Origin: an uncultured Candidatus Saccharibacteria bacterium
GTDB lineage: Bacteria; Patescibacteriota; Minisyncoccia; SW-4-49-11
Assembly (NCBI GenBank): GCA_964585065.1
Contig: CAZPCB010000001.1
Coordinates: 80,034 to 144,033 of the forward strand
Direction of reading: 5' to 3'
DNA length: 64,000 nt
In this document: one piece after another, positions 6,017 through 17,956 of the stretch
Numbering within the stretch: the first letter of the stretch is position 1
How the letters are laid out: every line of letters starts with the position of its first letter
Position numbers and translations under genes: made by a program
The notes under the pieces: model-generated
Database searches by the model: none
What the model saw: only the letters and a program-made list of their open reading frames with translations
Told to the model about the DNA's origin: nothing

Positions 6017-6080
6017 GTATTCTGTCCTCCCTTGGAGGAGGTGGATTGAGCTAATTCCCCTCTCGAGGGGTGTACAGCTT
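6017..6080. repeat. GC-rich REP-like structured repeat, copy 1.
   Basis: 'ttctgtcctcccttggaggaggtggattgagctaattcccctctcgaggggtgta' shares its core with 6447-6520. It contains the local hairpin CCTCC-cttg-GGAGG and the CCCCT-ctcg-AGGGG hairpin. Confidence 0.45.
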
Positions 6081-6192
6081 TGCTGGACGGGGTTGGGAGT
6101 ATTCTGTCCCTAAAGTTACTCCTCCACCTGTCTGATTGACAGTAAGTATAAATTTTGATATTTTACTTATGTCCACATATTGATAATAGCAA

Positions 6193-6378
6193 ATGACCAA
6201 AACAATAACCCCTCCTCATCCAGATCACGACAAAACAGCTGATCAATCATCTACTCAATTCAAAGAAGATGTCGGTATCGAAGAAAATCCAGATTATAAA
6301 GACTGGGAAGAATGGGAAGAACTAGAAAAAGAACTTAAAGAGGGTAAATACGATCTAAGCGTAATGCTTATGAATTAG
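6193..6378 (+). CDS. Hypothetical small acidic protein (61 aa).
   Basis: ORF bracketed by the two REP-like repeats and followed by a terminator. 'DYKDWEEWEELEKELKEGKYD'. Confidence 0.35.
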   Translation: MTKTITPPHPDHDKTADQSSTQFKEDVGIEENPDYKDWEEWEELEKELKEGKYDLSVMLMN

Positions 6379-6397
6379 AAATTCAACAAAACAACCA

Positions 6398-6427
6398 ACC
6401 CCGGCACATTGTCGGGGTTTTTATTTA
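6398..6427 (+). terminator. Rho-independent terminator.
   Basis: 'ccccggcacattgtcggggtttttattt'. Confidence 0.45.
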
Positions 6428-6446
6428 CCCTAAAATTTACAATGTT

Positions 6447-6520
6447 TTCTGTCCTCCCTTGGGGGAGGTGGCACGGAGTGCCGGAGGTGGATTGAGCTAA
6501 AATTCCCCTCTCGAGAGGTT
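6447..6520. repeat. GC-rich REP-like structured repeat, copy 2, with an inserted hairpin.
   Basis: 'ttctgtcctcccttgggggaggtggcacggagtgccggaggtggattgagctaaaattcccctctcgagagg'. The conserved 18-mer GGAGGTGGATTGAGCTAA is shared with copy 1. Confidence 0.45.
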
Positions 6521-6596
6521 GTATCTTTGATGAAGGGGGGGGATTTTACCTACCTCAAAAACTCCTTCAAAACAGCTGGATCACTCTCGTATATTC

Positions 6597-7517
6597 TTAT
6601 AGAAGATTTAACGAAGAAGCTTCACAACTACTAAAATCAAGAGTAACAAAATAATTCTCACCTTTCTCCGTTGTAAATGAATGCGCAATATCTATCTCTT
6701 GGTCTAAAATATAATTAATAAATTCATTACTACAGTACTCTTTAACCATCAAATCCTTAAGGAATTCTGTAGATAATTGACTAGAATCTATATTTTGTAT
6801 TTCATATGTATATTGAATAGAACCAGATTGCTGCTCCTTAATTCCTAACAGAGTAATATTATCGTTCAATTTACTCGGAAAAGGTCTATCATTTAATATT
6901 GACACCATAGCAGCAAGCTTACTATCTGTCTCTTCACTATACTCCTCTTCTGACGATGAGTCCAAATACATCTCATCCTCTAATGCACTCCACTCAAGAA
7001 AAAAAGTCACCGATAATATACCAAAAGCAATCAAGAAAAAGATAATCCACCCCTTCGTATCAAAATACTTATATACAGGCTTATGTAATGTTGCTACAAA
7101 GTCCTTATTCCTCAATATCTGAATCAAAACAACCCAAGAACATATAAGGAATACAAGCACCCCAACATATACCCAACTCGTAATACTAATTGTATTTTCA
7201 AAAATAATAAACCCTAAGGATATAATACCCATCAATATAATCAATACCTGTAGATACATCCTTATACTACGATCAACCCCAACTCGTACACGATTCCCTA
7301 ATACAACAAAAATACTCGACAAGATAAGAGTTAATATCATATCCGATATCATCACATCAAAAAAATATTGACCAAGCCCATTGGCATATATCCAAAGATA
7401 GAAAGGAGTCACACCCCATATACCCAACCAACCAATTCCAGATATCATAATTCCCATCCATTTCAGAATAGTCTTACTTCTATCTAATTTTTTAGTATCA
7501 ATCGCAACTTCACTCAT
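6597..7517 (-). CDS. Hypothetical polytopic membrane protein with an acidic C-terminal domain.
   Basis: At least 6 predicted TM helices in the N-terminal 200 aa. C-terminal 'DSSSEEEYSEETDSK'. Confidence 0.45.
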   Translation of the reverse strand: MSEVAIDTKKLDRSKTILKWMGIMISGIGWLGIWGVTPFYLWIYANGLGQYFFDVMISDMILTLILSSIFVVLGNRVRVGVDRSIRMYLQVLIILMGIISLGFIIFENTISITSWVYVGVLVFLICSWVVLIQILRNKDFVATLHKPVYKYFDTKGWIIFFLIAFGILSVTFFLEWSALEDEMYLDSSSEEEYSEETDSKLAAMVSILNDRPFPSKLNDNITLLGIKEQQSGSIQYTYEIQNIDSSQLSTEFLKDLMVKEYCSNEFINYILDQEIDIAHSFTTEKGENYFVTLDFSSCEASSLNLL

Positions 7518-7597
7518 ACTATTTTATATATGTATATATCATAACACCATAATCATAGATATCATAATATAATTCATGAAGATAGTAGTATTTTAAA

Positions 7598-7682
7598 CCC
7601 CTTTTAGTACGGTGTACTTGTCTGTTGCGAGGAGCATTCGCTCGAAAATAGTTTCCGCTATTCGTCCTTTGACGAGGCTTTG
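7598..7682. repeat. 85-bp direct repeat, copy A (about 80% identical to 8746-8831).
   Basis: 'ccccttttagtacggtgtacttgtctgttgcgaggagcattcgctcgaaaatagtttc...gaggctttg'. Confidence 0.5.
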
Positions 7683-7962
7683 TATTTGCCTATTACATTT
7701 GAAAGCTTTGTGGAAAATGGTCTGTGCAAATTTTGCACTAACCACTTTTTAATGACATTATATCCCCAACCTTCTTTTTGAGCTATTGCAAAAAATGCAA
7801 CAACTGAATCTTCTCTAGCTTATCCACATTTGCAATATGCATTTTTTACATATTGCTTTTTAATCAAACTCATACCTATCGTATACTTGACAAATAGCAA
7901 ATATTATGTTACTATAAGGTTACAAATGAGTGGACTAGGAATACCTGGGCCACTCATTTTTA

Positions 7963-8703
7963 TTACGGAAATTCTTTATATCCATATCCTTTCACTCTAT
8001 TCCCCTTACGTCTAAATTTTGACTTTAATATAGAAAAAGGAGGCTTATTTTTATACTGATCTTTATCTAAACAAAATCTACTAATTGGATATGCTACAAG
8101 ATCAGCAATTTGATGACCATTAATATTTTTTGTTTTACCAATAAACTCAATTTTTTGAATATGTTTTTCAAAATCATCTTGAGATACATACCGTTTTCGC
8201 CCTTATCGAAAAACATTATACACATTTATTAAGTCATTATTAGACTTATTATCTCTCGCTTCAATTGAGATAATCCCCGTACCATTATGCTCTTGAAGAA
8301 ATTTAATAAATCTTTCAATAATAAACGAAAATGAAAGTTCATATGGATCACTTGGATCATTATATATAGAAGTTAATTTATCTTTACGAATACAACTAGA
8401 GATAATGGTATAATCTAAATCCTGCATTAATATATTCATATCTTCTATAAAAACTTTTCTTTTCAAAGGGTTGAGTAAAGATTTAAAATCATTTTTTGCC
8501 TTACGAATTTCATAAGAATGTAATATGGTATTTTTATTATTAAAATGATTAATTTTAAGCTTATTTACTTTAGCAATAACTTGCTCCTCATAATATACTT
8601 TTTCAAAAATACACCCTACCAAAGTAAAAATAGGATATTGAATATCATACTTTACTAAGTTATGATCTCCAGATTCATCTAAAAATATAATATATTCTTT
8701 CAT
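7963..8703 (-). pseudogene. DUF3800-family gene interrupted by a single in-frame TAA at 8203-8205. N-terminal part is 8203-8703; in-frame continuation is 7966-8202.
   Basis: N-terminus 'MKEYIIFLDESGDH' (DESG motif). After the TAA the same frame continues for 79 aa: 'GRKRYVSQDDFEKHIQKIEFIGKTKNINGHQIADLVAYPISRFCLDKDQYKNKPPF...' with the DUF3800-like QxADL motif. The combined length of about 246 aa is family-typical. Confidence 0.55.
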
Positions 8704-8745
8704 AAATACATTATATCAAACCCAATATCTATTAATCAATAAATG

Positions 8746-8831
8746 CCCCCCTTTTAGAACGGTATAATTCTCTGTAGCGAGGAGCATTTGCTCGAAAATA
8801 GTTTCGTGACCAGCCGCTTAACCAGGCTTTG
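8746..8831. repeat. 85-bp direct repeat, copy B.
   Basis: 'ccccccttttagaacggtataattctctgtagcgaggagcatttgctcgaaaatagtttc...caggctttg'. Confidence 0.5.
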
Positions 8832-8886
8832 AGTGAATTTAATTGGACTTTACTTTTTGACATAAGGAATTTTTAGTCATATACTA

Positions 8887-8915
8887 TTGACAAAATTAAG
8901 AAAATGTGCTACTAT
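8887..8915 (+). promoter_or_regulatory. Sigma70-type consensus promoter.
   Basis: -35 TTGACA (8887-8892), 17-nt spacer, -10 TACTAT (8910-8915), followed by the ATG at 8942. Confidence 0.5.
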
Positions 8916-8941
8916 TTTTCCTGAAACTGATCTTGCTATCC

Positions 8942-9178
8942 ATGGCATTTCAATCCTCAACGATTGTAAAGCGTCACGTACCAGTAACTCACCCCACCCC
9001 TCTCGAAGCGGAAGCCGAGTACATCGCAGCCAATCAAGAAAGGTGTGAGGTCGCTGATGACCTCGATGCAGAGCAAGAAGTACCGGAGCCGATTGATGAT
9101 AGACCTGAAGATTGGGCTGCCTTTGAAAGAGATATCGAGCAAGCCCAATACGACCTTGAAGGATTATTCCTTGAGTGA
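8942..9178 (+). CDS. Small, highly acidic hypothetical protein (78 aa) on a GC-rich, probably horizontally acquired segment.
   Basis: 'MAFQSSTIVKRHV...EAEAEYIAANQERCEVADDLDAEQEVPEPIDDRPEDWAAFERDIEQAQYDLEGLFLE'. Local GC is far above the roughly 30% background. Flanked by a consensus promoter and a strong terminator. Confidence 0.45.
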   Translation: MAFQSSTIVKRHVPVTHPTPLEAEAEYIAANQERCEVADDLDAEQEVPEPIDDRPEDWAAFERDIEQAQYDLEGLFLE

Positions 9179-9199
9179 CACCATCGCCCATAACCTCCA

Positions 9200-9231
9200 T
9201 CCCCCGACACCTTGCCGGGGGATTTTTTTTA
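9200..9231 (+). terminator. Strong rho-independent terminator.
   Basis: 'cccccgacaccttgccggggg' followed by 8 T. Confidence 0.6.
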
Positions 9232-9471
9232 TTACTTAAACAATTTTGAAAACCAGCCGAATAAACTTGGGACTTTGCCCTTGCTCAGTTCTCTGGTATG
9301 TTTGAAAATAGGTTTATTATACCCTATATTATATTTGATTTTTCGCTTAACTCGAGAAGGGCTGAGAGATTGAATTGCAGAAATTCCCGTAGCCTTCTTT
9401 ATCCTACGCTTCAGCTTTGTCACTCCGAGCAATGTTTTGAGAGATGGTTTGCGATAGCGGAAGAGTTTCAT
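9232..9471 (-). CDS. Hypothetical small basic protein (79 aa).
   Basis: Lys/Arg-rich ORF, last gene of the minus-strand operon downstream of the 335-aa gene. Confidence 0.3.
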   Translation of the reverse strand: MKLFRYRKPSLKTLLGVTKLKRRIKKATGISAIQSLSPSRVKRKIKYNIGYNKPIFKHTRELSKGKVPSLFGWFSKLFK

Positions 9472-9488
9472 AGGTGATTGTGTGATTA

Positions 9489-9764
9489 TTATACCATTTT
9501 AATAGTTAAAATATCATCTATCATTTTCTTTGGAATACTAGATGGGATTTCACTTTTAGACTCTTTTATCCTTAAAAAAAGATCATAGATTACTGATTCT
9601 ACTATAGAAACTAGAATAATTGTAATTGGCTTACACAGTCTTCTCTGATCACTTGAAGACGAAGAATTAAATGCATCATATAATACAGCAAGTACTTCAA
9701 GATTATAAATAATATTATCACCATGTGAGAAATTCCATATAAATCCTGACTTCACGGTAAACAT
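9489..9764 (-). CDS. Hypothetical protein (91 aa).
   Basis: ORF in an operon arrangement 8 bp after the 335-aa gene. No recognisable motif. Confidence 0.3.
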   Translation of the reverse strand: MFTVKSGFIWNFSHGDNIIYNLEVLAVLYDAFNSSSSSDQRRLCKPITIILVSIVESVIYDLFLRIKESKSEIPSSIPKKMIDDILTIKMV

Positions 9765-9771
9765 ATCCTAA

Positions 9772-10779
9772 TTATTTAGATATCAAATCAACAAACCTCC
9801 TCACTTTCCCTTTTTCCCAGTCCATAATTTTGGCATATTTCCCCTTATGTTTAAGTGGTCGATTATATTTACATCCTTCACATTCATATTTTTCTATTTT
9901 CTCAGGAGTATATCCATCAATTCTATTTTCTGAGGGTATTATAGTGCTTTCATTATGGTTACAACTCATTGGGATTACATATCTCAAGCCATCCATTTGA
10001 AAAATATTCCAGCTAATTATAATAGCAAATTTTTCTTGTAACTCATTATTTGGTTTTTTCTTGAATTTATCTTCATAATAATCGATAAATGAGTATAAAA
10101 GATTTTCTCTTGCAAGCAAAATATTATCTCCCTGCCATTCATAGCCATAACTTGCTTTAAAAGCTTCTTCTGCCCAATGCAACCAATCTTTTTCATCTTC
10201 GGTATATTTGGATACCACTTGTAATTTAATATCTAAAAAACCTACTCGATTCTTAATCGGTATCAAGTGTCCTTCTTGAGCTGTAGGGTCATATCTACTC
10301 ACAATATACGGAGCCTCTCCACAAGTAATTTCTAGCTTTAATTCTTTGATATATTTTTGCCAATTATGCTTAGTTATGGAATAAATATCCACTGATTTAT
10401 TCATTTGCTTCACTACTGTAAGTGGAGTAAAGACTTCAGCTTTATCTTTGGTACGATATAATTGTTCTTCTTTACTTTTAGAGGCACGAGGTTGAATCAG
10501 GAGATTACCTTTTCCAGTTATTAACTCTGGCTTTATAGGTTTTGTCACACCAAATTTCTTTTTATCAAATTTTTGACTTTCATAAGCATCTGTAGCCCAG
10601 ATAATTCTGCTTTTTGTTATATGGCCTTTTTCAGAATTACTAAGCTTTTCTGTTCGCTGTTTTCTCAGAAGGTTGATAATTTTTTCACTGGGATAATGGA
10701 GTAATAATATATCCAAAATAATCCTCTTGTCTCGAAGAGTATTTTCTAAGATATCAATATTTTTTTGTGCCCCATTCAT
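9772..10779 (-). CDS. Hypothetical 335-aa partner of the helicase-methyltransferase fusion. Carries a degenerate methyltransferase N-terminal motif but no NPPY.
   Basis: Start is 17 nt after the stop of the 1433-aa ORF. 'AEVFTPLTVVKQMNKSV...LEITCGEAPYIV' resembles gamma-class MTase motifs X and I, and echoes 'QIFTPKHVVKMMVNSL' in the big protein. No catalytic (D/N)PP(Y/F). Confidence 0.45.
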   Translation of the reverse strand: MNGAQKNIDILENTLRDKRIILDILLLHYPSEKIINLLRKQRTEKLSNSEKGHITKSRIIWATDAYESQKFDKKKFGVTKPIKPELITGKGNLLIQPRASKSKEEQLYRTKDKAEVFTPLTVVKQMNKSVDIYSITKHNWQKYIKELKLEITCGEAPYIVSRYDPTAQEGHLIPIKNRVGFLDIKLQVVSKYTEDEKDWLHWAEEAFKASYGYEWQGDNILLARENLLYSFIDYYEDKFKKKPNNELQEKFAIIISWNIFQMDGLRYVIPMSCNHNESTIIPSENRIDGYTPEKIEKYECEGCKYNRPLKHKGKYAKIMDWEKGKVRRFVDLISK

Positions 10780-10796
10780 AAGTTTAATATCACTTA

Positions 10797-13700
10797 CTAT
10801 AGGTGGTTTTCAATAAAATCAATTTCTTTTTGGTCTAGGCCATATTTTTTGTATAGCTGCTGATCAATTTCAGGAATAGACTTTGACCAATCTATATCTG
10901 ATTGAGAAGTAAAATCTTGATCTAATATTACATATCCAAAAGAAGATCTTCTATTAGGTTCTTGTAATAATAAAAAAGCAAAAAAATTAGTTTGTGAGTA
11001 TTTGACAAAATTTTCACAATCTTCATCATCATCTGACATAAATAATGAAAGTTTACTCCTTCCAAATGCCGAACCACTAGGAAGTATCTCTATAAGTTCT
11101 TTAGCTCTCAACTTAACATTCTCAATCGTCGGCTTACCCGAAACAAAAGTTTTCTTCGGGTAAGCCGACGTAACAACAACTTTATACTGATCTATATACT
11201 GTTGCCCCTTATTAATTACATTTCTATCTGCCCAAAAAAGCTTAGCTCTTCCTGAAGATCCTGATTTATCGTTAGTGAGTAACTGAATTGCATTATCCCA
11301 ATCTGATTTTTTAAAAGATACTTTTGTAGGGTTCTTCTCTACAAAGTCAGATTCAATTCCAAATACACCTTTTTTAATCCTACTGTTTAATTTTGTACCT
11401 GTTGTTAATTTTTTCCAACTTGAAAAGAAATAAGGATTAGGAGTGAGAGACTGCCAATTTTTTACTTCCACTTCTGCTACATCGTCTGTATATATACGAT
11501 TAGAATACCGATATTTTTCGTGATATTTTGTCATATCACGAAGCACAATAGAAACACCTGCTGATAAGTTAACACTATTCCCAAATATTGGAACAGGGTC
11601 TCTATCCGTTCTATACCAAGCTCTTTTATCAGAGGTACCTTCGTATGCATTTATTAATACCGTATGCCCATCGCTTAATATTTTTTTACCTATCCCTCCC
11701 AGTCTTTCAGGTGCATCAAACCAGCCTCCAAAAGGATAAATAAGACATATATTTTGTGAAATGTTATCAGCCTGTTCCTGGAAATAATAGTATATCCAAT
11801 TTGAATTACCTTGTGTCTGTGTTTGAGATTTACCTACAGTTTCCTGATACGGGGGATTTCCTACTATTGCTGTGAATTTCATATGTTTATCTAGATTAAA
11901 TTGTTCATAGAGTTTGTCTTGGAGAGAAAGACCTTCATCATCTTTCGCATAAGGGATAAGATCTAATTGAGCAAAGTTTTTGGTACTGATGATATGAGCA
12001 TCATCAAAACCAAAGATAAGTGAATTAGTTATAGCGTGCAATACACCAGTTGGGGCAAGTCCATATACCTGATTTTCTAAAATATGTTTTACACAGTCTA
12101 TATCACTACCATATTGACTCCGTGTATTAGTAAAGAGTTTTTTTACAATTTCTGTAATATATAATCCTGACTTCATATACAAATCAATGAAAGTTGTATC
12201 TGTTCGCTTGAATATATCTGGATTATGTTCTTCTAGACTATTTACCATCATTTTAACTACATGTTTAGGAGTAAAAATCTGGTTAGTAGCTTGTGGGGGG
12301 ATAAACTCAAAAATATCTTGTGTACGGTCTTGTAGATAATAATCTGAAAGTTCTGAACGTTTATGCAAAAACTCTTGTACTGATGCATTGAACACATTTT
12401 CATTAAATAGCCCTTCAAAACGACGGCTTTCAATTTGACTAGTTTCTTCATTTTTTGTTTCATATTCAAAGCCATCTCGGAGCTGTCTAAACTCCTCTTT
12501 AGTTATGCTGGTAAGTTCCTGAAATACTTCTTCTGGGATATTCTCGTCAAAGTTATGTAATGTTGTTTTAGAGTCACCATAAGCCATCAAAAAACTGGGT
12601 ATTGTTCTGGAGAATCCTCTGAGACGGTCTCTTGTTTTCTCTTCTTCTGTTTTATCTTTAGGGGCGGGCTTTTCATCTGGTTTTTCTGGCTGATGATAAT
12701 CTGGATCTCCTGGTTGCGGAACTGGATCCGGTATTTTTGCTACAACTTTGGGAAGTTTTTTCTCTAATTCTTTTATAATGACATTGGCCGCATCAGAAGG
12801 TATATTTTTATTACGGAGTTCAGTTGCTACATTGCTTTTAATTGTAGAGACTTCTTTTTCCTCTTCGCTCCCAATTTCTATATATTGCTTATCACCTAAT
12901 AAACCATTAGTAGTGTTAATTATAATATCTTCATTTATATGAATATTATTTTCTTTATCAACCCATATTCGTGGTTTATTTGAGACTTTATTTTTAGTAC
13001 TATCACCTTGTTTACCTCCTTCGTCAGGTGTCATTTTATTAATGATATCCATCACACTTTGAGGAGCTCCAAAAATACCACTAATACTTTCAAATAAGCG
13101 ATTGCTCATAAATCCTCGATTGACTACTTCCTCTGTAATAAGTTTCAAAGGAAGAGTTAATACCTGATTGGCATCGAGTTGTTGCATTCTCCCTTCATCA
13201 TCCTCTGCATACACAAATAATAAATTAATGAGTTCTTGAACTTTAGCTTCTCGTGTGATATTTGTTTTAGCTCCACTTCTATCCGCCATTTCTGCCAAAG
13301 TTTGCAGTATACGATCTGGGGCAAAGTCAAAAACATAACAGTTTTCTTTTGTGTATACTTCTCCTCCGCTCGTTGCAACTTCAAATGGGTTCTGGGCACG
13401 AAAAGCAGTCTGCATATATAATGAAGGGCTCTTACCCCCTTGTAACATCAGCACAGCTGTCCATGAAGGAACAGTAACACCTGTTGTTAACTGACCACAA
13501 GATAACGTAATGGTTTTAGTTTCTAGTGGATGCTTCTCATTATTATGTCCATTTATTGCTGCCCGCACTTCTGCCAGAGCAGAGTTAGTGAGTCTATCTT
13601 CATCACCTTCGCCTGCTGCTAAAATAATAGTATAATCTTGAAAGAAAGGGTGTTCTTGGAGTAATTGCTTCATCAACTTACTTTGAGGTACACCAGGGAG

Positions 13701-15098
13701 TAACCAGAAAGTATGTCGAAGCGATTCGAGAGAGTCTCTATTTGAAAATGGGTATTGATAATTTGGATTAGCTAAATTATCTAAGAAAAGCCTCACTTTA
13801 TCTTCATATACAAATGTATCTTTTCCATTAACTTTGATAACCCTAAAGAATTCTCCTAACTCAAACGCATATTCACTGCCTTCATTTTTTGCTTCTTCTG
13901 CTTTAATTTGCAATGCTCGAGATAATTGATAGGTAAAGATATTGAGCTTTGGTAATGGAGCATATGGATTATTACCATCCTCTATATTCCACTCTGCTTT
14001 AGCATTCTGCTCATCTGTATATGACCAGTTATATATTTGTTTACTATTAAATTTATTACTTGCAAGAGCTTTGAAGGGTGTGCCCGATAAATGGAGTGCG
14101 AAATCATAATTAACAGCCTCTAGAACGCTAAATGAGTGTCTTGTATCTACTCCTTCATGAGACTCATCAATAATTAACACATCCCATTTTATTCCATCTC
14201 CATCTTCTGATTTAAATATCCACTGATTTTTTCTTTTATATGCACTCGCATCCTCTTTTTTGCCTTTTATATCTTGAAGAGATATAAAGTGTACATAATT
14301 TGAATAAATTCCACCCTGACTAAGTTGTTCTTCACGAGTAAGAATACTATCTGAACCAGGAATATCTCTTAGATTTTTTCGAACACTTTCACTAGCAGTA
14401 AATATCCATCTATGTTTATTATCATTTTGACCCGTGTACTTAAAATCAAATTTTTGAAAATCGGTATACCAGCTATCTGCTATAGCTGGTCTATTAGTAA
14501 TAATCAGAACTTTTTTTGCTTGAATATGTTGAGCAAATGAATAGGCCGTAAGAGTTTTCCCAAAACGTGGTTTAGCATTCCATAAAAACTCTGGCTGAAC
14601 ATTGCTATCTACCAATGTATTCTCATAATAAGCAGTGGTTACTTCAACTGCCTGTTGCTGTTCAGTACGTAGTGTAAAGTCAGTAATAATACCCTCTAGA
14701 TTAATTTTGGCGTTTAATTTATAGTTCTCAATGGTTTCAATGATAATGTCTAGATCTGTCTTAAACCATTCTGCCTTTCGATTGGTTAGAGGGTTGATAG
14801 TTTCTTCTCGTTCAATTCCTAATTTTTCTAGTTCTCGATGAATATCATGGTCAGAAAATATTTTCTTGTCGTTTGTGACTGCATTAGTAGTATATAAAAC
14901 TTCATAAGCTACATTACTTGCCTCATGCTGATCAATAATTCTTAGATTATGTCCTTCTCCTATAATATTTAATTTCTTTGTTTGTCCAACCTTTAACCAA
15001 CCCTCATGTGATACGACGTCCAAATGCTTATATACATATATAACTTTTTCTTCAAAAGCTGAGATATTAATATTATCTAAATTATCTGTGGCATTCAT
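10797..15098 (-). CDS. 1433-aa single-polypeptide fusion: N-terminal T5orf172 (GIY-YIG-like) domain, SF2 helicase (DExH), gamma-class N6-adenine DNA methyltransferase, and a C-terminal putative target-recognition region. Resembles Type ISP restriction-modification enzymes.
   Basis: T5orf172: 'VIYVYKHLDVVSHEGWLKVGQTKK...KAEWFKTDLDIIIETIENY'. Helicase: 'KPRFGKTLTAYSFAQ' (Walker A), 'VLIIDESHEG' (motif II), 'LSGTPF' (III), 'QLTTGVTVPSWTAVLMLQ' (V), 'MQTAFRAQNP' (VI). MTase: 'QIFTPKHVVKMMVNSL' (motif X), 'FIDLYMKSGLYI' (degenerate motif I), 'AIVGNPPYQ' (motif IV). Confidence 0.7.
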   Translation of the reverse strand: MNATDNLDNINISAFEEKVIYVYKHLDVVSHEGWLKVGQTKKLNIIGEGHNLRIIDQHEASNVAYEVLYTTNAVTNDKKIFSDHDIHRELEKLGIEREETINPLTNRKAEWFKTDLDIIIETIENYKLNAKINLEGIITDFTLRTEQQQAVEVTTAYYENTLVDSNVQPEFLWNAKPRFGKTLTAYSFAQHIQAKKVLIITNRPAIADSWYTDFQKFDFKYTGQNDNKHRWIFTASESVRKNLRDIPGSDSILTREEQLSQGGIYSNYVHFISLQDIKGKKEDASAYKRKNQWIFKSEDGDGIKWDVLIIDESHEGVDTRHSFSVLEAVNYDFALHLSGTPFKALASNKFNSKQIYNWSYTDEQNAKAEWNIEDGNNPYAPLPKLNIFTYQLSRALQIKAEEAKNEGSEYAFELGEFFRVIKVNGKDTFVYEDKVRLFLDNLANPNYQYPFSNRDSLESLRHTFWLLPGVPQSKLMKQLLQEHPFFQDYTIILAAGEGDEDRLTNSALAEVRAAINGHNNEKHPLETKTITLSCGQLTTGVTVPSWTAVLMLQGGKSPSLYMQTAFRAQNPFEVATSGGEVYTKENCYVFDFAPDRILQTLAEMADRSGAKTNITREAKVQELINLLFVYAEDDEGRMQQLDANQVLTLPLKLITEEVVNRGFMSNRLFESISGIFGAPQSVMDIINKMTPDEGGKQGDSTKNKVSNKPRIWVDKENNIHINEDIIINTTNGLLGDKQYIEIGSEEEKEVSTIKSNVATELRNKNIPSDAANVIIKELEKKLPKVVAKIPDPVPQPGDPDYHQPEKPDEKPAPKDKTEEEKTRDRLRGFSRTIPSFLMAYGDSKTTLHNFDENIPEEVFQELTSITKEEFRQLRDGFEYETKNEETSQIESRRFEGLFNENVFNASVQEFLHKRSELSDYYLQDRTQDIFEFIPPQATNQIFTPKHVVKMMVNSLEEHNPDIFKRTDTTFIDLYMKSGLYITEIVKKLFTNTRSQYGSDIDCVKHILENQVYGLAPTGVLHAITNSLIFGFDDAHIISTKNFAQLDLIPYAKDDEGLSLQDKLYEQFNLDKHMKFTAIVGNPPYQETVGKSQTQTQGNSNWIYYYFQEQADNISQNICLIYPFGGWFDAPERLGGIGKKILSDGHTVLINAYEGTSDKRAWYRTDRDPVPIFGNSVNLSAGVSIVLRDMTKYHEKYRYSNRIYTDDVAEVEVKNWQSLTPNPYFFSSWKKLTTGTKLNSRIKKGVFGIESDFVEKNPTKVSFKKSDWDNAIQLLTNDKSGSSGRAKLFWADRNVINKGQQYIDQYKVVVTSAYPKKTFVSGKPTIENVKLRAKELIEILPSGSAFGRSKLSLFMSDDDEDCENFVKYSQTNFFAFLLLQEPNRRSSFGYVILDQDFTSQSDIDWSKSIPEIDQQLYKKYGLDQKEIDFIENHL

Positions 15099-15319
15099 AT
15101 TAAAATTATATTTAAATATATATCTAGAGCTAGGTTTAACTATTTACTCCTATTATACCACATTTTTCCCTTTTTGGGTAGTGATTATCTCATAAAAAAT
15201 ATATACTATACAGAATTATCTATGTAATGTGTAGTGATTATTGTATATCCAGTAAATCTTTTAACTTTTTACCTTTATATTGCCAATAGGCTGCTCCTTG
15301 ATAGGCTCCACTTTTATTG

Positions 15320-15520
15320 CTATTGCCTTTTTGTTGATATATTTTGAGGGTTAATGGGGATAGTTTGAAAACTTGCAAAGAATCTCTTTAATCCTGAGAC
15401 ATTGTAGTATCCATTTGATTCTAGATTTCTCATCCTTTCTTGATAATTTTGACTGCCTGTTTGTCCTATTTTTATTAGTCCATCGACTACTGTTGTCATT
15501 ATATAGACTATTCCTTTCAT
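15320..15520 (-). CDS. Mini T5orf172 (GIY-YIG-like) ORF of 66 aa, possibly a fragment or decoy copy of the N-terminal domain of the adjacent fusion protein.
   Basis: 'IVYIMTTVVDGLIKIGQTGSQNYQERMRNLESNGY' matches the T5orf172 core (hydrophobic-Y-hydrophobic ... KIGxT ... R). It is shorter than the roughly 90-aa domain and lacks the EWF end. Confidence 0.4.
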   Translation of the reverse strand: MKGIVYIMTTVVDGLIKIGQTGSQNYQERMRNLESNGYYNVSGLKRFFASFQTIPINPQNISTKRQ

Positions 15521-15589
15521 AGATTATGTGAATTTAATGATTATTTGTATTGTAGCATGTTTGAATTTGAATTGGGAGATCTTGAGTAA

Positions 15590-15617
15590 TGAAAAAGCCC
15601 TCCTGAAACAGGGGGCT
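15590..15617 (-). terminator. Rho-independent terminator on the minus strand.
   Basis: Minus strand 'gcccccuguuucaggagggcuuuuuc'. Confidence 0.5.
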
Positions 15618-15943
15618 TGAGTAATGGGTGGTAAAAAATCAGACGCGGACTGCCGAGTGGCGGATACCGGGTGACTCCTCATCCATCTCTTGACACATAC
15701 GCTTGGCATCTTCATCAGAGGGAATGAGGATCGGAGATGATCCACGACCTGTCACTCCTGTGAAAAGTGACTGCCAATGAATGACATACTGAAACATGTC
15801 TAGTAACAAAGAAAGTGAACTTTACATATTATATATACCACATTTTTGCCATTTTGTCAATAGTTAATGACTACTAAATCAACATCTTATTCCACCCTGT
15901 CAGGTAAAAACCTGCCACCTCGCCCCGCCCGAGGGAGAGAGGG

Positions 15944-15976
15944 GAATTTAAAAAGCCACCTTTTGAGGGGTGGCTT
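15944..15976 (-). terminator. Rho-independent terminator on the minus strand, immediately after the 137-aa gene.
   Basis: Minus strand 'agccaccccucaaaagguggcuuuuuaaauu'. Confidence 0.5.
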
Positions 15977-15984
15977 GGGGCAGG

Positions 15985-16398
15985 CTATATCAGAACATTC
16001 ATAATATCTGATTGAGCTCTGTCTAATAAAATTTTATAAACTTTTTCAATCTTATCGGGTAGATGAGACATCCTCTTTACATTATTACGACTGAATGCTG
16101 TAATGTCAAATAAATCACTATCCTTTTCTTGCTTATAATTATCGTATAACTCATTCAGAGTTATGATGATATCATCTACATCCTCATTGATATCTTCATT
16201 TTCAATATACTTTCTCAAATTTACTATTAATGTTATATATTGTAATAATTCGTCTAATCCATTTAGAATAATTCTGAAGAAATCGTTTTTCTCAAAAGAT
16301 TCTGATCTTATAGAGGGATGAGGAATTATTAATTGAGAGAATTCCTCTCGAAGAGTAATAATGCTTTGAACCTGAGTTGAAGAGATTAAAGAGCTCAT
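15985..16398 (-). CDS. Hypothetical protein (137 aa).
   Basis: ORF followed by a terminator. No recognisable family. Confidence 0.4.
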   Translation of the reverse strand: MSSLISSTQVQSIITLREEFSQLIIPHPSIRSESFEKNDFFRIILNGLDELLQYITLIVNLRKYIENEDINEDVDDIIITLNELYDNYKQEKDSDLFDITAFSRNNVKRMSHLPDKIEKVYKILLDRAQSDIMNVLI

Positions 16399-16608
16399 TG
16401 TCTGAAAAGTAGAAGCTTATTGTTTATATCATATTTTTAGTAATTTATCAATATATATTGACCACTATTAAGATAATTCCATCACACCCTTATCTCCCTC
16501 AACGAGGGGTGTATGGTAAAGAAAAAAATGAATTCTCATCATGTTATAATTATTTGATATTATTAATAAAATTATATATACTTATAGTGTTTATCCACAA
16601 ATCATCCC

Positions 16609-16893
16609 ATGGATCCAAAAATTGCAAACACACACCAGTCTGCTGTGTGTTTGATAAGGGTAACTATTATTTGTGTTAGAGAAAATAAAAAAACAATAAG
16701 TAAAGCTCAGTTGATAGATCTTTTAGCGGAGCACCCAGAGTCAGAAGAATATTTAGATTACACACAAAATATTCTTCTAGTAGATTGTAGAGACAATGAT
16801 ATCCTCACAATAGATGTACAAACTAATAATGTGAGATTTCCAATAAAAAGAGATATGTTTGGAAATATCCTAGAGTATCATTATATAAAATAA
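16609..16893 (+). CDS. Hypothetical protein (94 aa).
   Basis: ORF followed by the terminator at 16912-16948. Confidence 0.35.
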   Translation: MDPKIANTHQSAVCLIRVTIICVRENKKTISKAQLIDLLAEHPESEEYLDYTQNILLVDCRDNDILTIDVQTNNVRFPIKRDMFGNILEYHYIK

Positions 16894-16911
16894 AGTATCG
16901 TTTGAGTAAAT

Positions 16912-16948
16912 GGGCTCGGGTATAAAACTCGAGCTTTTTTTGTTACTT
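16912..16948 (+). terminator. Rho-independent terminator.
   Basis: 'gggctcgggtataaaactcgagcttttttt'. Confidence 0.5.
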
Positions 16949-16990
16949 TAAAAAGGTATATCTGGCGAGAGGTGATTTCCCTTCCTTTTC

Positions 16991-17956
16991 TTATACACTC
17001 CTCAAAATTTTAATACATTCCTCAGCTGCATTACATTGCATAAGCTGGGAGCGGATATCGCTGGCTCCTGGAAAATTATTGAGATACATTTTGAAGCATT
17101 TTTTCATCACGGCAAAATTTTTCTCTTGTCCCCAAGTTTGGTCAAAAAGTTGTATATGTTCGATGAGTTTTTGCACCTTTATCTCTGTACTGAGTGTATT
17201 GTGGTCTATATTGGGATTGAATATCCAAGGATTATGGAATACTCCCCTTCCAATCATAATACCATCTACACCATATTGAGTGGCGATATCAAGTCCCTGC
17301 TGATAAGATAGAATATCTCCATTGCCAATAATGAGGGTATGAGGGCTTAGCGCGTCTCTTAGTTTTACTGCTTTTCCGATTTCATCCCAATGAGTAGGAT
17401 AATCGGATAATTCTTTTACGGTACGGCCATGTATGGTGATAGCATCGAGATTAGATTCTAAGAGATGTCCAATCCATTCTTCGGTTTGAATTTCACTAAA
17501 ACCAATGCGAGTTTTGACACTAACTGGTATATCTCCTGCTCCCTCTTTGGCAGCCTGTATAATATCTGAGGCGAGTTGGGGATTTTTGATAAGTGCGGAG
17601 CAAGCTCCTTGTTTGATTACTTTTTTGACTGGGCAGCCCATATTGATATCTAAGCCAGCAAAACCTTGTTCTCTGGCATAAACTCCCGCCTGATAATAAT
17701 GCTCTGGTGTAATACCCCAAATTTGGGCTACAAGAGGCTGTTCCTCTGGAGTATATTGCAATCGATGTATGACTTTGGATCTTCCAATATCTGAAGCTAA
17801 TCCCTCTACGCTGGTAAATTCTGTTACCATCACATCAGGACGTCCACAAGAGCTAATAATACGCCGAAAAACCGTATCAGTAACCTCCTCCATAGGAGCT
17901 AATACAAAAAATGGTTTAGATAATGATTGCCAAAATGATTGCATATATAGTCTCAA
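16991..17956 (-). CDS. dus: tRNA-dihydrouridine synthase (Dus family, FMN-dependent).
   Basis: 'FVLAPMEEVTDTVFRRII' N-terminal Dus signature. TIM-barrel FMN site 'GLDINMGCPVKKV' with catalytic Cys. 'ITIHGRT'. Confidence 0.85.
   Translation of the reverse strand: MRLYMQSFWQSLSKPFFVLAPMEEVTDTVFRRIISSCGRPDVMVTEFTSVEGLASDIGRSKVIHRLQYTPEEQPLVAQIWGITPEHYYQAGVYAREQGFAGLDINMGCPVKKVIKQGACSALIKNPQLASDIIQAAKEGAGDIPVSVKTRIGFSEIQTEEWIGHLLESNLDAITIHGRTVKELSDYPTHWDEIGKAVKLRDALSPHTLIIGNGDILSYQQGLDIATQYGVDGIMIGRGVFHNPWIFNPNIDHNTLSTEIKVQKLIEHIQLFDQTWGQEKNFAVMKKCFKMYLNNFPGASDIRSQLMQCNAAEECIKILRSV

Follow-up and report, generated by a model that had tools for sequence, protein, structure and literature searches.

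A single-chain GIY-YIG nuclease, helicase, and methyltransferase with a half-methylase partner: a candidate ATP-dependent restriction-modification system in a Saccharibacteria genome

Two adjacent genes and the domains of the large protein

In a 64,000-nucleotide stretch of DNA from an uncultured Candidatus Saccharibacteria bacterium (GenBank assembly GCA_964585065.1, contig CAZPCB010000001.1, positions 80,034 to 144,033; hereafter the window), we analyzed a minus-strand locus whose largest gene (10797..15098) is an intact open reading frame (ORF), with its stop codon within these coordinates, encoding a 1433-residue protein that joins a nuclease domain, a helicase, and a methyltransferase (MTase) in a single chain. 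Downstream of it on the same strand lie a gene for a 335-residue protein (9772..10779), which is a truncated MTase-like protein and which we call the half-methylase, and ORFs of 91 residues (9489–9764) and 79 residues (9232–9471). An initial annotation, made from the sequence alone, had described these four ORFs as they are found here, and the spacing it gave is exact: 17 nucleotides (nt) separate the TAG of the large gene from the ATG of the 335-residue gene. We propose, with a probability of roughly 60%, that the two larger genes make up an ATP-dependent restriction-modification (RM) system that would resemble Type ISP or Type III enzymes in its action while using a GIY-YIG nuclease and, as an obligate subunit, the half-methylase.

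The domain order assigned to the large protein in the initial annotation, consisting of a T5orf172 domain, a superfamily 2 (SF2) helicase, a gamma-class N6-adenine MTase, and a variable C-terminal region, was borne out by Pfam and PADLOC matches and by sequence motifs, and the protein aligned over its full length with four homologs (P0003, P0004, P0005, and P0017) at 53–70% identity. The T5orf172 domain, which belongs to the GIY-YIG clan, occupies residues 18–129 (14712..15047, minus strand) and includes the sequences VIYVY (19–23) and GWLKVGQT (33–40) as well as R53, H87, and E110-W111. In scans of the full-length protein, the match to Pfam T5orf172 (PF10544, residues 20–125) was marginal, at 20.2 bits compared to a gathering threshold of 20; the first 140 residues scanned alone scored 25.5 bits (E-value 2e-5) against the same threshold. 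PF10544 was also matched by 23 of 24 homologous N-termini (best E-value 1e-11), 14 of which matched the related MUG113 family in addition, and a profile of this N-terminal domain detected it in 75 nuclease-helicase ORFs across 82 related loci. A Pfam scan of the large protein matched no PD-(D/E)xK family and, taken together with the isolated-domain match, this result supports the claim that the nuclease position is filled by a T5orf172-type domain rather than by an Mrr-like PD-(D/E)xK module. The tyrosine of the second GIY-YIG motif is replaced by a lysine (K36) in the 1433-residue protein, as is usual for T5orf172 domains. This type of domain is an experimentally active nuclease in the phage ICP1 protein Odn (PMC8263062), and it has been named among the restriction nuclease domains of N6-adenine RM systems (PMC4738411).

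The SF2 helicase/translocase core spans residues 141–690 (13029..14678, minus strand) and carries motifs I (GKT, 180–182), II (DESH, 311–314), III (SGTP, 338–341), V (LSCGQLTTGVTVP, 532–544), and VI (QTAFRAQNP, 563–571). This region matched Pfam ResIII (residues 141–342, E-value 6e-13), the PHROG 16 'DNA helicase' profile (residues 138–682, E-value 3e-24), and the PADLOC model REase_MTase_IIG (PDLC03626, residues 166–599, E-value 2e-22). A charged, proline-rich linker between motor and methylase (residues 691–815; 12654..13028, minus strand), whose column identity of 0.18–0.39 is among the lowest in the protein, leads to a helical lead-in and the S-adenosylmethionine (AdoMet)-binding N-half of the gamma-class MTase (residues 816–1069; 11892..12653, minus strand), in which we located motifs X (IFTPKHVV, 941–948), I (FIDLYMKSGLY, 970–980), II (VYGLAPT, 1011–1017), and III (NFAQLDL, 1041–1047). 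The remainder of the chain (residues 1070–1433; 10800..11891, minus strand), which we refer to as the C-module, contains motif IV (GNPPYQ, 1080–1085), a putative target-recognition region at ~1140–1350, and a conserved C-terminal helix, DIDWSKSIPEIDQQLYKKYGL (1401–1421). Pfam Eco57I (PF07669) matched residues 1009–1149 (E-value 2e-11), and the PADLOC model MTase_II (PDLC03375) covered residues 1072–1430. The order of motifs X, I, II, III, and IV (NPPY) followed by a target-recognition domain (TRD) is thus the gamma-class order. NCBIfam held no model for either the 1433-residue or the 335-residue protein.

In an alignment of 37 homologs with identities of 41–70%, the motifs quoted in the initial annotation were all present and were invariant or nearly so. 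At the N-terminal active site, G33, K36, G38, R53, E110, and W111 were invariant, and Y21, Y23, and H87 were at least 90% conserved. Helicase motifs I (GKT), II (DESH), III (SGTP), and VI (Q563 and R567) and MTase motifs X (FTP, 942–944), I (D972 and K976–G978 within DLYMKSG, 972–978), and IV (NPPY, 1081–1084) were invariant or at least 90% conserved, with the helicase core being the best-conserved part of the large protein. This invariance of catalytic residues, as read from aligned sequences, argues for an active nuclease, ATPase, and MTase.

The half-methylase partner and the divisible methylase

ORFs were called in 83 loci, and all of those within 5 kb of the large gene were clustered. The sole recurrent neighbor of the large gene was a homolog of the 335-residue protein. 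Searches with queries from both partner subtypes found such a homolog in 76 of 82 loci, and in 4 of the 6 loci lacking one the system starts within ~140 nt of a contig end. In a reverse check, all three randomly chosen members of the 335-residue family directly followed a 1320- to 1335-residue protein with ResIII and Eco57I domains. The pairing of the two genes is therefore obligate, and the earlier suggestion that the 335-residue gene is a partner stands. The two small ORFs that follow had been counted in the same operon; they exist, but neither has a homolog in the 82 loci, and they are not part of the system. ORFs of 66, 73, and 137 residues and a DUF3800 gene, likewise without a homolog in these loci, were rejected as system components together with them. 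Because the small ORFs have no counterpart elsewhere and the 335-residue homolog is the only recurrent neighbor, we consider the system to comprise two genes.

Pfam assigned no family to the 335-residue protein, in which motifs X (AEVFTP, 114–119), I (LEITCGEAPY, 149–158), II (YGYEWQGDN, 211–219), and III (NIFQMDGL, 258–265) can nevertheless be recognized, followed by a putative C-terminal zinc ribbon (CxH...CxxC) with invariant C273, C300, and C303 and near-invariant H275. An alignment of 28 partner sequences contained no motif IV, (D/N/S)PP(Y/F/W), at any position. An AlphaFold2 model of the partner (predicted local distance difference test score, pLDDT, 66; predicted template modeling score, pTM, 0.67) has only three Rossmann strands before zinc-ribbon-like hairpins, and the folds most similar to it are those of the MTase parts of LlaBIII, HsdM, MmeI, and PglX. 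Members of a shorter partner subtype (~217–250 residues) matched positions 23–120 of 311 in the N6_Mtase profile and 15–120 of 259 in the MmeI_Mtase profile, the latter at 23–24 bits, below the cut-off of 27. The missing motif IV, the three-strand model, and the restriction of these relatives to the first ~120 profile positions together indicate that the partner is a truncated MTase-like protein, which keeps the AdoMet-binding half and lacks the catalytic half. Mean column identity in the 28-sequence alignment was 64%, with no variable recognition region; because of this conservation, we conclude that the partner is not a specificity subunit. In a profile-profile comparison of the partner with the large protein, motif X alone could be aligned (21 columns, probability 1.6%), and we therefore rejected the possibility that the partner is a recent duplicate of the N-half of the large protein.

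The same parts recur in other arrangements. Single chains like that of the window were found at 17 loci. At three loci, a gene for the nuclease, helicase, and N-half is followed by a separate gene for a C-module of ~340 residues; at 13 loci, the C-module gene lies upstream of the nuclease-helicase-N-half gene; and at four or five loci, a fusion of half-MTase and C-module (~650 residues) accompanies the nuclease-helicase-N-half protein. A three-gene form, consisting of a half-MTase, a complete MTase of ~520 residues, and a nuclease-helicase of ~850 residues, accounts for 32 of the 82 loci. The fusion of half-MTase and C-module is also common among the 1937 clusters (50% identity) that match the partner profile, and in one such fusion the Pfam Eco57I match continues collinearly from one part into the other. 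The break point always falls at ~1066–1072, right before the beta-4 strand and NPPY, and in split homologs the N-half of the MTase remains on the nuclease-helicase chain. That the nuclease-helicase, N-half, C-module, and half-MTase occur as one, two, or three genes in varied orders points to a functional linkage among them.

Exchange of the recognition module is seen most directly in one homolog (P0012), which is 70% identical to the window protein from residue 10 to GNPPYQ and unrelated beyond that point, except for the last 80 residues. Conservation in the family is lowest at residues 1140–1350 and in the 691–810 linker. This variability, combined with the swapping of modules, is the reason for assigning residues ~1140–1350 as a putative TRD, and variability in a presumed recognition module of this kind is typical of RM systems. 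Taken together, the free and fused forms of the C-module, the switch in P0012, and the low conservation at 1140–1350 show that the C-module, comprising the catalytic half and the putative TRD, behaves as an exchangeable specificity cassette.

Distribution and genomic setting

A protein search gave about 7900 homolog matches. The best 120 of these were mostly full length (~1300–1490 residues) and 38–70% identical to the window protein, and the few homologs with a name are annotated as 'Eco57I restriction-modification methylase domain-containing protein' or as 'superfamily II helicase'. Eighty loci from representative bacterial and archaeal genomes, all on contigs of genomes or metagenome-assembled genomes (MAGs), represent Bacillota, Actinomycetota, Bacteroidota, Patescibacteria, Planctomycetota, Spirochaetota, Pseudomonadota, and other phyla. 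Homologs were also present in 86 plasmid records (23 conjugative), of which 33 are from Enterococcus and include plasmids bearing optrA; Lactobacillus plasmids carry them too. In Enterococcus faecium, for example, plasmid pDY28-optrA (L001; NZ_MW207670.1, 5262–10371) encodes a 1456-residue homolog and a 248-residue half-methylase, and this pair is carried by multiresistance plasmids with optrA and erm(A) in E. faecium, E. faecalis, and E. durans. An E. faecium plasmid homolog has the accession WP_096710548. Among 50,697 phage records, three contained more than half of the protein, all of them metagenomic phage contigs. Two Prevotella Lak megaphages (MK250029 and MK250019) encode a protein whose 24% identity is confined to the helicase part (residues 170–625).

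The initial annotation had presented the fusion as an RM type without a published description, and a full-text literature search, with subscription-only papers and REBASE outside its scope, indeed found no publication describing or characterizing it; a paper on BREX diversity does not mention it. The accompanying claim of a novel architecture holds with respect to characterization, but it has to be set against ~7900 matches in many phyla, 86 plasmid records, and generic names already in use. Matches of both proteins to REBASE-derived PADLOC models also count against an unusual architecture, and the idea of a unit made of a GIY-YIG protein, a helicase, and a gamma-class MTase is not new, having been proposed in 2009 for YeeA(DnmA)/YeeB/YeeC (PMC2731913, PMC9973331). 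The claim of novelty is thus too strong for the architecture as such; what is unexpected is the half-methylase partner and the split, cassette-like methylase. The family looks like a widespread variant of ATP-driven restriction enzymes that, as far as we found, is uncharacterized.

The locus is flanked by housekeeping genes (RNase Y, a DEAD-box helicase, Dus, KsgA, and ABC-F). The RNase Y of the window shares 85–98% identity with proteins of Minisyncoccia, Paceibacterota, and Candidatus Elulimicrobium humile, by which the host is judged to be a Patescibacterium (Parcubacteria/Paceibacterota) near the last of these. In a relative (L090) whose flanks are 93–97% identical, the interval between Dus and the DEAD-box helicase holds other cargo: DUF1016/YhcG, Fic/RhuM, and Bro-N genes replace the RM locus, the DUF3800 gene, and a 306-residue ORF. 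Synteny breaks at ~6034 and ~15930 (window 6034–15930 compared to L090 2970–8155). Different cargo between near-identical flanks places the RM locus in a strain-variable island of ~9.9 kb, in agreement with the accessory stretch between housekeeping genes that had been described. The island location and the plasmid homologs are consistent with a mobile defense gene; for a small Patescibacterium genome, an RM gene of 4.3 kb is a large investment. A neighboring foreign segment rich in G+C had been reported as well. It proved to be a patch of only ~450 bp (15550–16000) at the right edge of the island, with a G+C content of 0.47–0.53 compared to about 0.33. The patch contains two hairpin-plus-T-run terminators and a 52-codon ORF (MFQYVIHWQSLFTGV…), with no match in Rfam, and pieces of it 45–55 bp long recur at cassette borders in L090 (2927–2967, 3010–3057, and 4753–4803).

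Upstream of the large gene, an extended -10 promoter-like element, TGGTATAAT, lies at 15152–15160 on the minus strand, ~55 nt before the ATG; read from the sequence, it amounts to no more than a match to the consensus, and shuffled sequence contains promoter-like sites at least as often as this region does. A second copy of the promoter-like motif 'AAAAATGTGGTATA' is found at ~15831–15845, within the G+C-rich patch. An Rfam scan of 8500–17000 yielded nothing above threshold. Between 15250 and 15520, just upstream of the large gene on the minus strand, there is a remnant of a stand-alone T5orf172 gene, of which a 66-residue ORF matches the N-terminus of PADLOC PDC-S57 (E-value 4e-24) and Pfam T5orf172. 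About 25 further residues in another frame (…GAYQGAAYWQYKGKKLKDLLDIQ) resemble by eye what we take to be the end of a DUF4357-type C-terminal domain, and the remnant has the appearance of a pseudogene with an internal deletion. At two other loci (L084 and L086), the system is flanked by intact DUF4357 or T5orf172 genes that stand alone. With the N-terminal-domain profile of the family, which is subfamily-specific and therefore a weak test, no stand-alone T5orf172 neighbors were detected apart from one frameshifted copy.

Downstream, the 91-residue ORF, which may be a truncated gene, showed a non-significant match (13 bits) to the RiboL-PSP HEPN N-terminus. The 79-residue ORF encodes an extremely basic product, and the hairpin after it (9205–9240) has the form of a plus-strand terminator. 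The island also holds, on the minus strand, the DUF3800 gene (8203–8703; 166 residues, E-value 2e-11) and the 306-residue ORF (6597–7517), which has no family match; PADLOC matched neither of these two.

Relation to known systems and proposed mechanism

In layout, the large protein resembles the Type ISP enzymes LlaGI and LlaBIII (PDB 4XQK), which also join a nuclease, an SF2 ATPase, a gamma-class N6-adenine MTase, and a TRD in one chain. However, the Type ISP nuclease is an Mrr-type PD-(D/E)xK domain rather than T5orf172/GIY-YIG, Type ISP enzymes have no second subunit whereas the present family has a half-MTase gene in 76 of 82 loci, and the MTase of the present family can be naturally split before motif IV. 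LlaBIII was not matched by phmmer or by hmmsearch with full-length or helicase-only profiles (E-values up to 1–10). The initial label of a Type ISP-like protein thus holds for the analogous arrangement of domains but not for sequence, where no relationship to LlaGI or LlaBIII was detectable, and the term describes a layout, not family membership, at the level of sequence comparison.

The three-gene form (32 of 82 loci) recalls Type III enzymes such as EcoP15I (Mod2Res1) in having a separate MTase/recognition subunit and a helicase-nuclease subunit. In Type III enzymes, the nuclease is a PD-(D/E)xK domain at the C-terminus of Res, and Mod belongs to the beta class of MTases; here, a GIY-YIG-like nuclease at the N-terminus is combined with a gamma-class MTase and a truncated second Mod-like protein. 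The two Mod-type subunits of EcoP15I divide their work, one recognizing the site and the other methylating it; by analogy, an MTase-like partner without catalytic activity would have a precedent in this division of work. Shared with Eco57I-like Type IIG/IIS enzymes are the Pfam Eco57I domain, a C-terminal 'LY..Y.L...EI.FIE' helix, the fusion of restriction, modification, and specificity functions next to an MTase-like gene, and the PADLOC REase_MTase_IIG match. That match is confined to the helicase part (profile positions 175–623 of 1359), however. Characterized Type IIG enzymes lack a helicase and cleave at a fixed distance with a PD-(D/E)xK nuclease.

Another comparison is with DnmA(YeeA)-YeeB-YeeC, in which Morgan et al. 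(2009) predicted an RM system consisting of the MmeI-like YeeA, the helicase YeeB, and the GIY-YIG protein YeeC (PMC2731913). A gamma-class N6-adenine MTase with a TRD, an SF2 helicase, and a T5orf172/GIY-YIG nuclease are combined there in one conserved operon, as three proteins with T5orf172 at the C-terminus of YeeC; in the present family, this domain is fused N-terminally to the helicase (75 ORFs). The MTases differ too, being of the MmeI family in DnmA and matching Pfam Eco57I here, with no MmeI domain in the large protein, and an extra half-MTase protein is universal in the present family. The system described here is not the DnmA/YeeB/YeeC system, as judged by MTase family and fusion pattern.

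As to biochemical activities, kind of target site, and partner function, we infer the following scheme. The C-module of the 1433-residue protein would recognize a specific, probably asymmetric, DNA site and, with the adjoining upstream AdoMet-binding half, would methylate adenine there to mark host DNA. At an unmethylated site, the SF2 motor would hydrolyze ATP and translocate along double-stranded DNA, and the N-terminal T5orf172 (GIY-YIG) domain would nick or cut the DNA away from the site. The 335-residue protein, an MTase-like AdoMet-binding half without a catalytic loop, would act as an obligate subunit docked on the methylase/recognition module, which it may regulate or complete, for example by toggling between modification and restriction. 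A three-gene system with the same three activities, DnmA/YeeB/YeeC, has been reported to protect Vibrio crassostreae from some phages (PMC9973331).

Two alternatives concern what the methylase and its partner do. One strand could be methylated by the large protein, as a Type ISP- or Eco57I-like RM fusion, and the other by the 335-residue protein, as a complete and separate MTase in the manner of M.Eco57I. PADLOC labels the partner MTase_II (PDLC03390, E-value 6e-85), the Prokaryotic Genome Annotation Pipeline (PGAP) names its relatives 'restriction endonuclease subunit M' or 'N-6 DNA methylase', and sequences like motifs X and I are present. An ordinary second methylase is nonetheless improbable, given a truncated partner without motif IV throughout the alignment, three Rossmann strands in the model before the zinc-ribbon-like tail, shorter relatives that match only the beginning of the N6_Mtase and MmeI_Mtase profiles, high conservation without a variable recognition region, and a collinear Eco57I match that arises only by fusion to the NPPY module. 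We also consider it unlikely, if somewhat less so, that the locus is a methylation-only system or a relic, that is, an orphan epigenetic methylase whose helicase and nuclease are unused for restriction, a role that has been proposed for DnmA-YeeB-YeeC of Bacillus subtilis. Deletion of yeeB or yeeC in Bacillus subtilis leaves phage sensitivity unchanged, and loss of dnmA leaves transformation unchanged (PMC9973331); in addition, regulatory methylation would be plausible in a Patescibacterium host with a small genome. The nuclease and ATPase catalytic residues, however, are invariant in distant homologs, which would be unexpected for a relic, and the ORF is intact and full length. Moreover, the swapping of the recognition module among close relatives, the variability of the locus among strains, and its carriage on plasmids are hallmarks of diversifying selection for defense, and thus weigh against methylation alone.

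Two further alternatives concern the task of the system. In a manner like that of bacteriophage exclusion (BREX), motor and methylase would recognize and block foreign DNA without double-strand cleavage, and T5orf172 would only bind or nick. Structurally, the MTase groups with PglX, T5orf172 has been termed a DNA-binding domain (PMC9973331), and a nicking nuclease effector encoded by a PLE is listed in the T5orf172 literature (bioRxiv 10.1101/2021.07.12.452122), but the metal-binding glutamate (E110) and the arginine (R53) of the GIY-YIG site are invariant and no other BREX gene lies nearby, so that we assign this explanation a low probability. An establishment or anti-restriction factor of mobile elements, by which plasmid or phage DNA entering a host would be methylated and so escape restriction, fits the 86 plasmid records (23 of them conjugative) and the three metagenomic phage contigs; it is highly improbable, given that all 80 loci from the bacterial and archaeal collection are on genome or MAG contigs from many phyla, that the window locus is chromosomal and lies between housekeeping genes, that anti-restriction would not need the conserved nuclease, and that carriage by phages is rare.

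Several points weigh against the two-gene ATP-dependent RM system that we favor. The literature search found no experiment on any family member, and the three-gene analog in B. subtilis restricts neither phage nor transformation (PMC9973331). Neither the large protein nor the partner, nor the full-length and helicase-only profiles, had a significant match in sequence searches of the PDB; the best match to a solved RM enzyme was the Type I subunit HsdR (3H1T, E-value 0.1), and LlaBIII was unmatched. The model of the partner is moderately confident, as its pLDDT of 66 indicates. Finally, each system combines two AdoMet-binding halves with a single catalytic half, a ratio for which a simple RM model offers no explanation. 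This imbalance motivates a tentative and rather doubtful idea, according to which a single module of NPPY and TRD could pair with either AdoMet-binding half. With the half on the small partner it would form a modification complex, with the half tethered to the helicase-nuclease it would form a restriction complex, and competition for the one specificity module would decide between methylating and cutting. Such a switch would account for the occurrence of the C-module both as a separate protein and in fusions with the partner or with the motor chain, and it would be a new answer to the problem of coupling self and non-self discrimination in RM systems; unless it proves real, basic RM concepts are unchanged.

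The universal half-methylase and a methylase split just before its catalytic loop make the family a tractable system for studying how modification and restriction are coupled, and a swappable NPPY/recognition cassette may be of interest to enzyme engineers. If the family is active, GIY-YIG/T5orf172 would be a third nuclease solution for ATP-dependent translocating restriction enzymes, and a name and function would be provided for thousands of genes now labeled 'Eco57I methylase domain-containing protein' or 'restriction endonuclease subunit M', including those on Enterococcus plasmids bearing the linezolid-resistance gene optrA.

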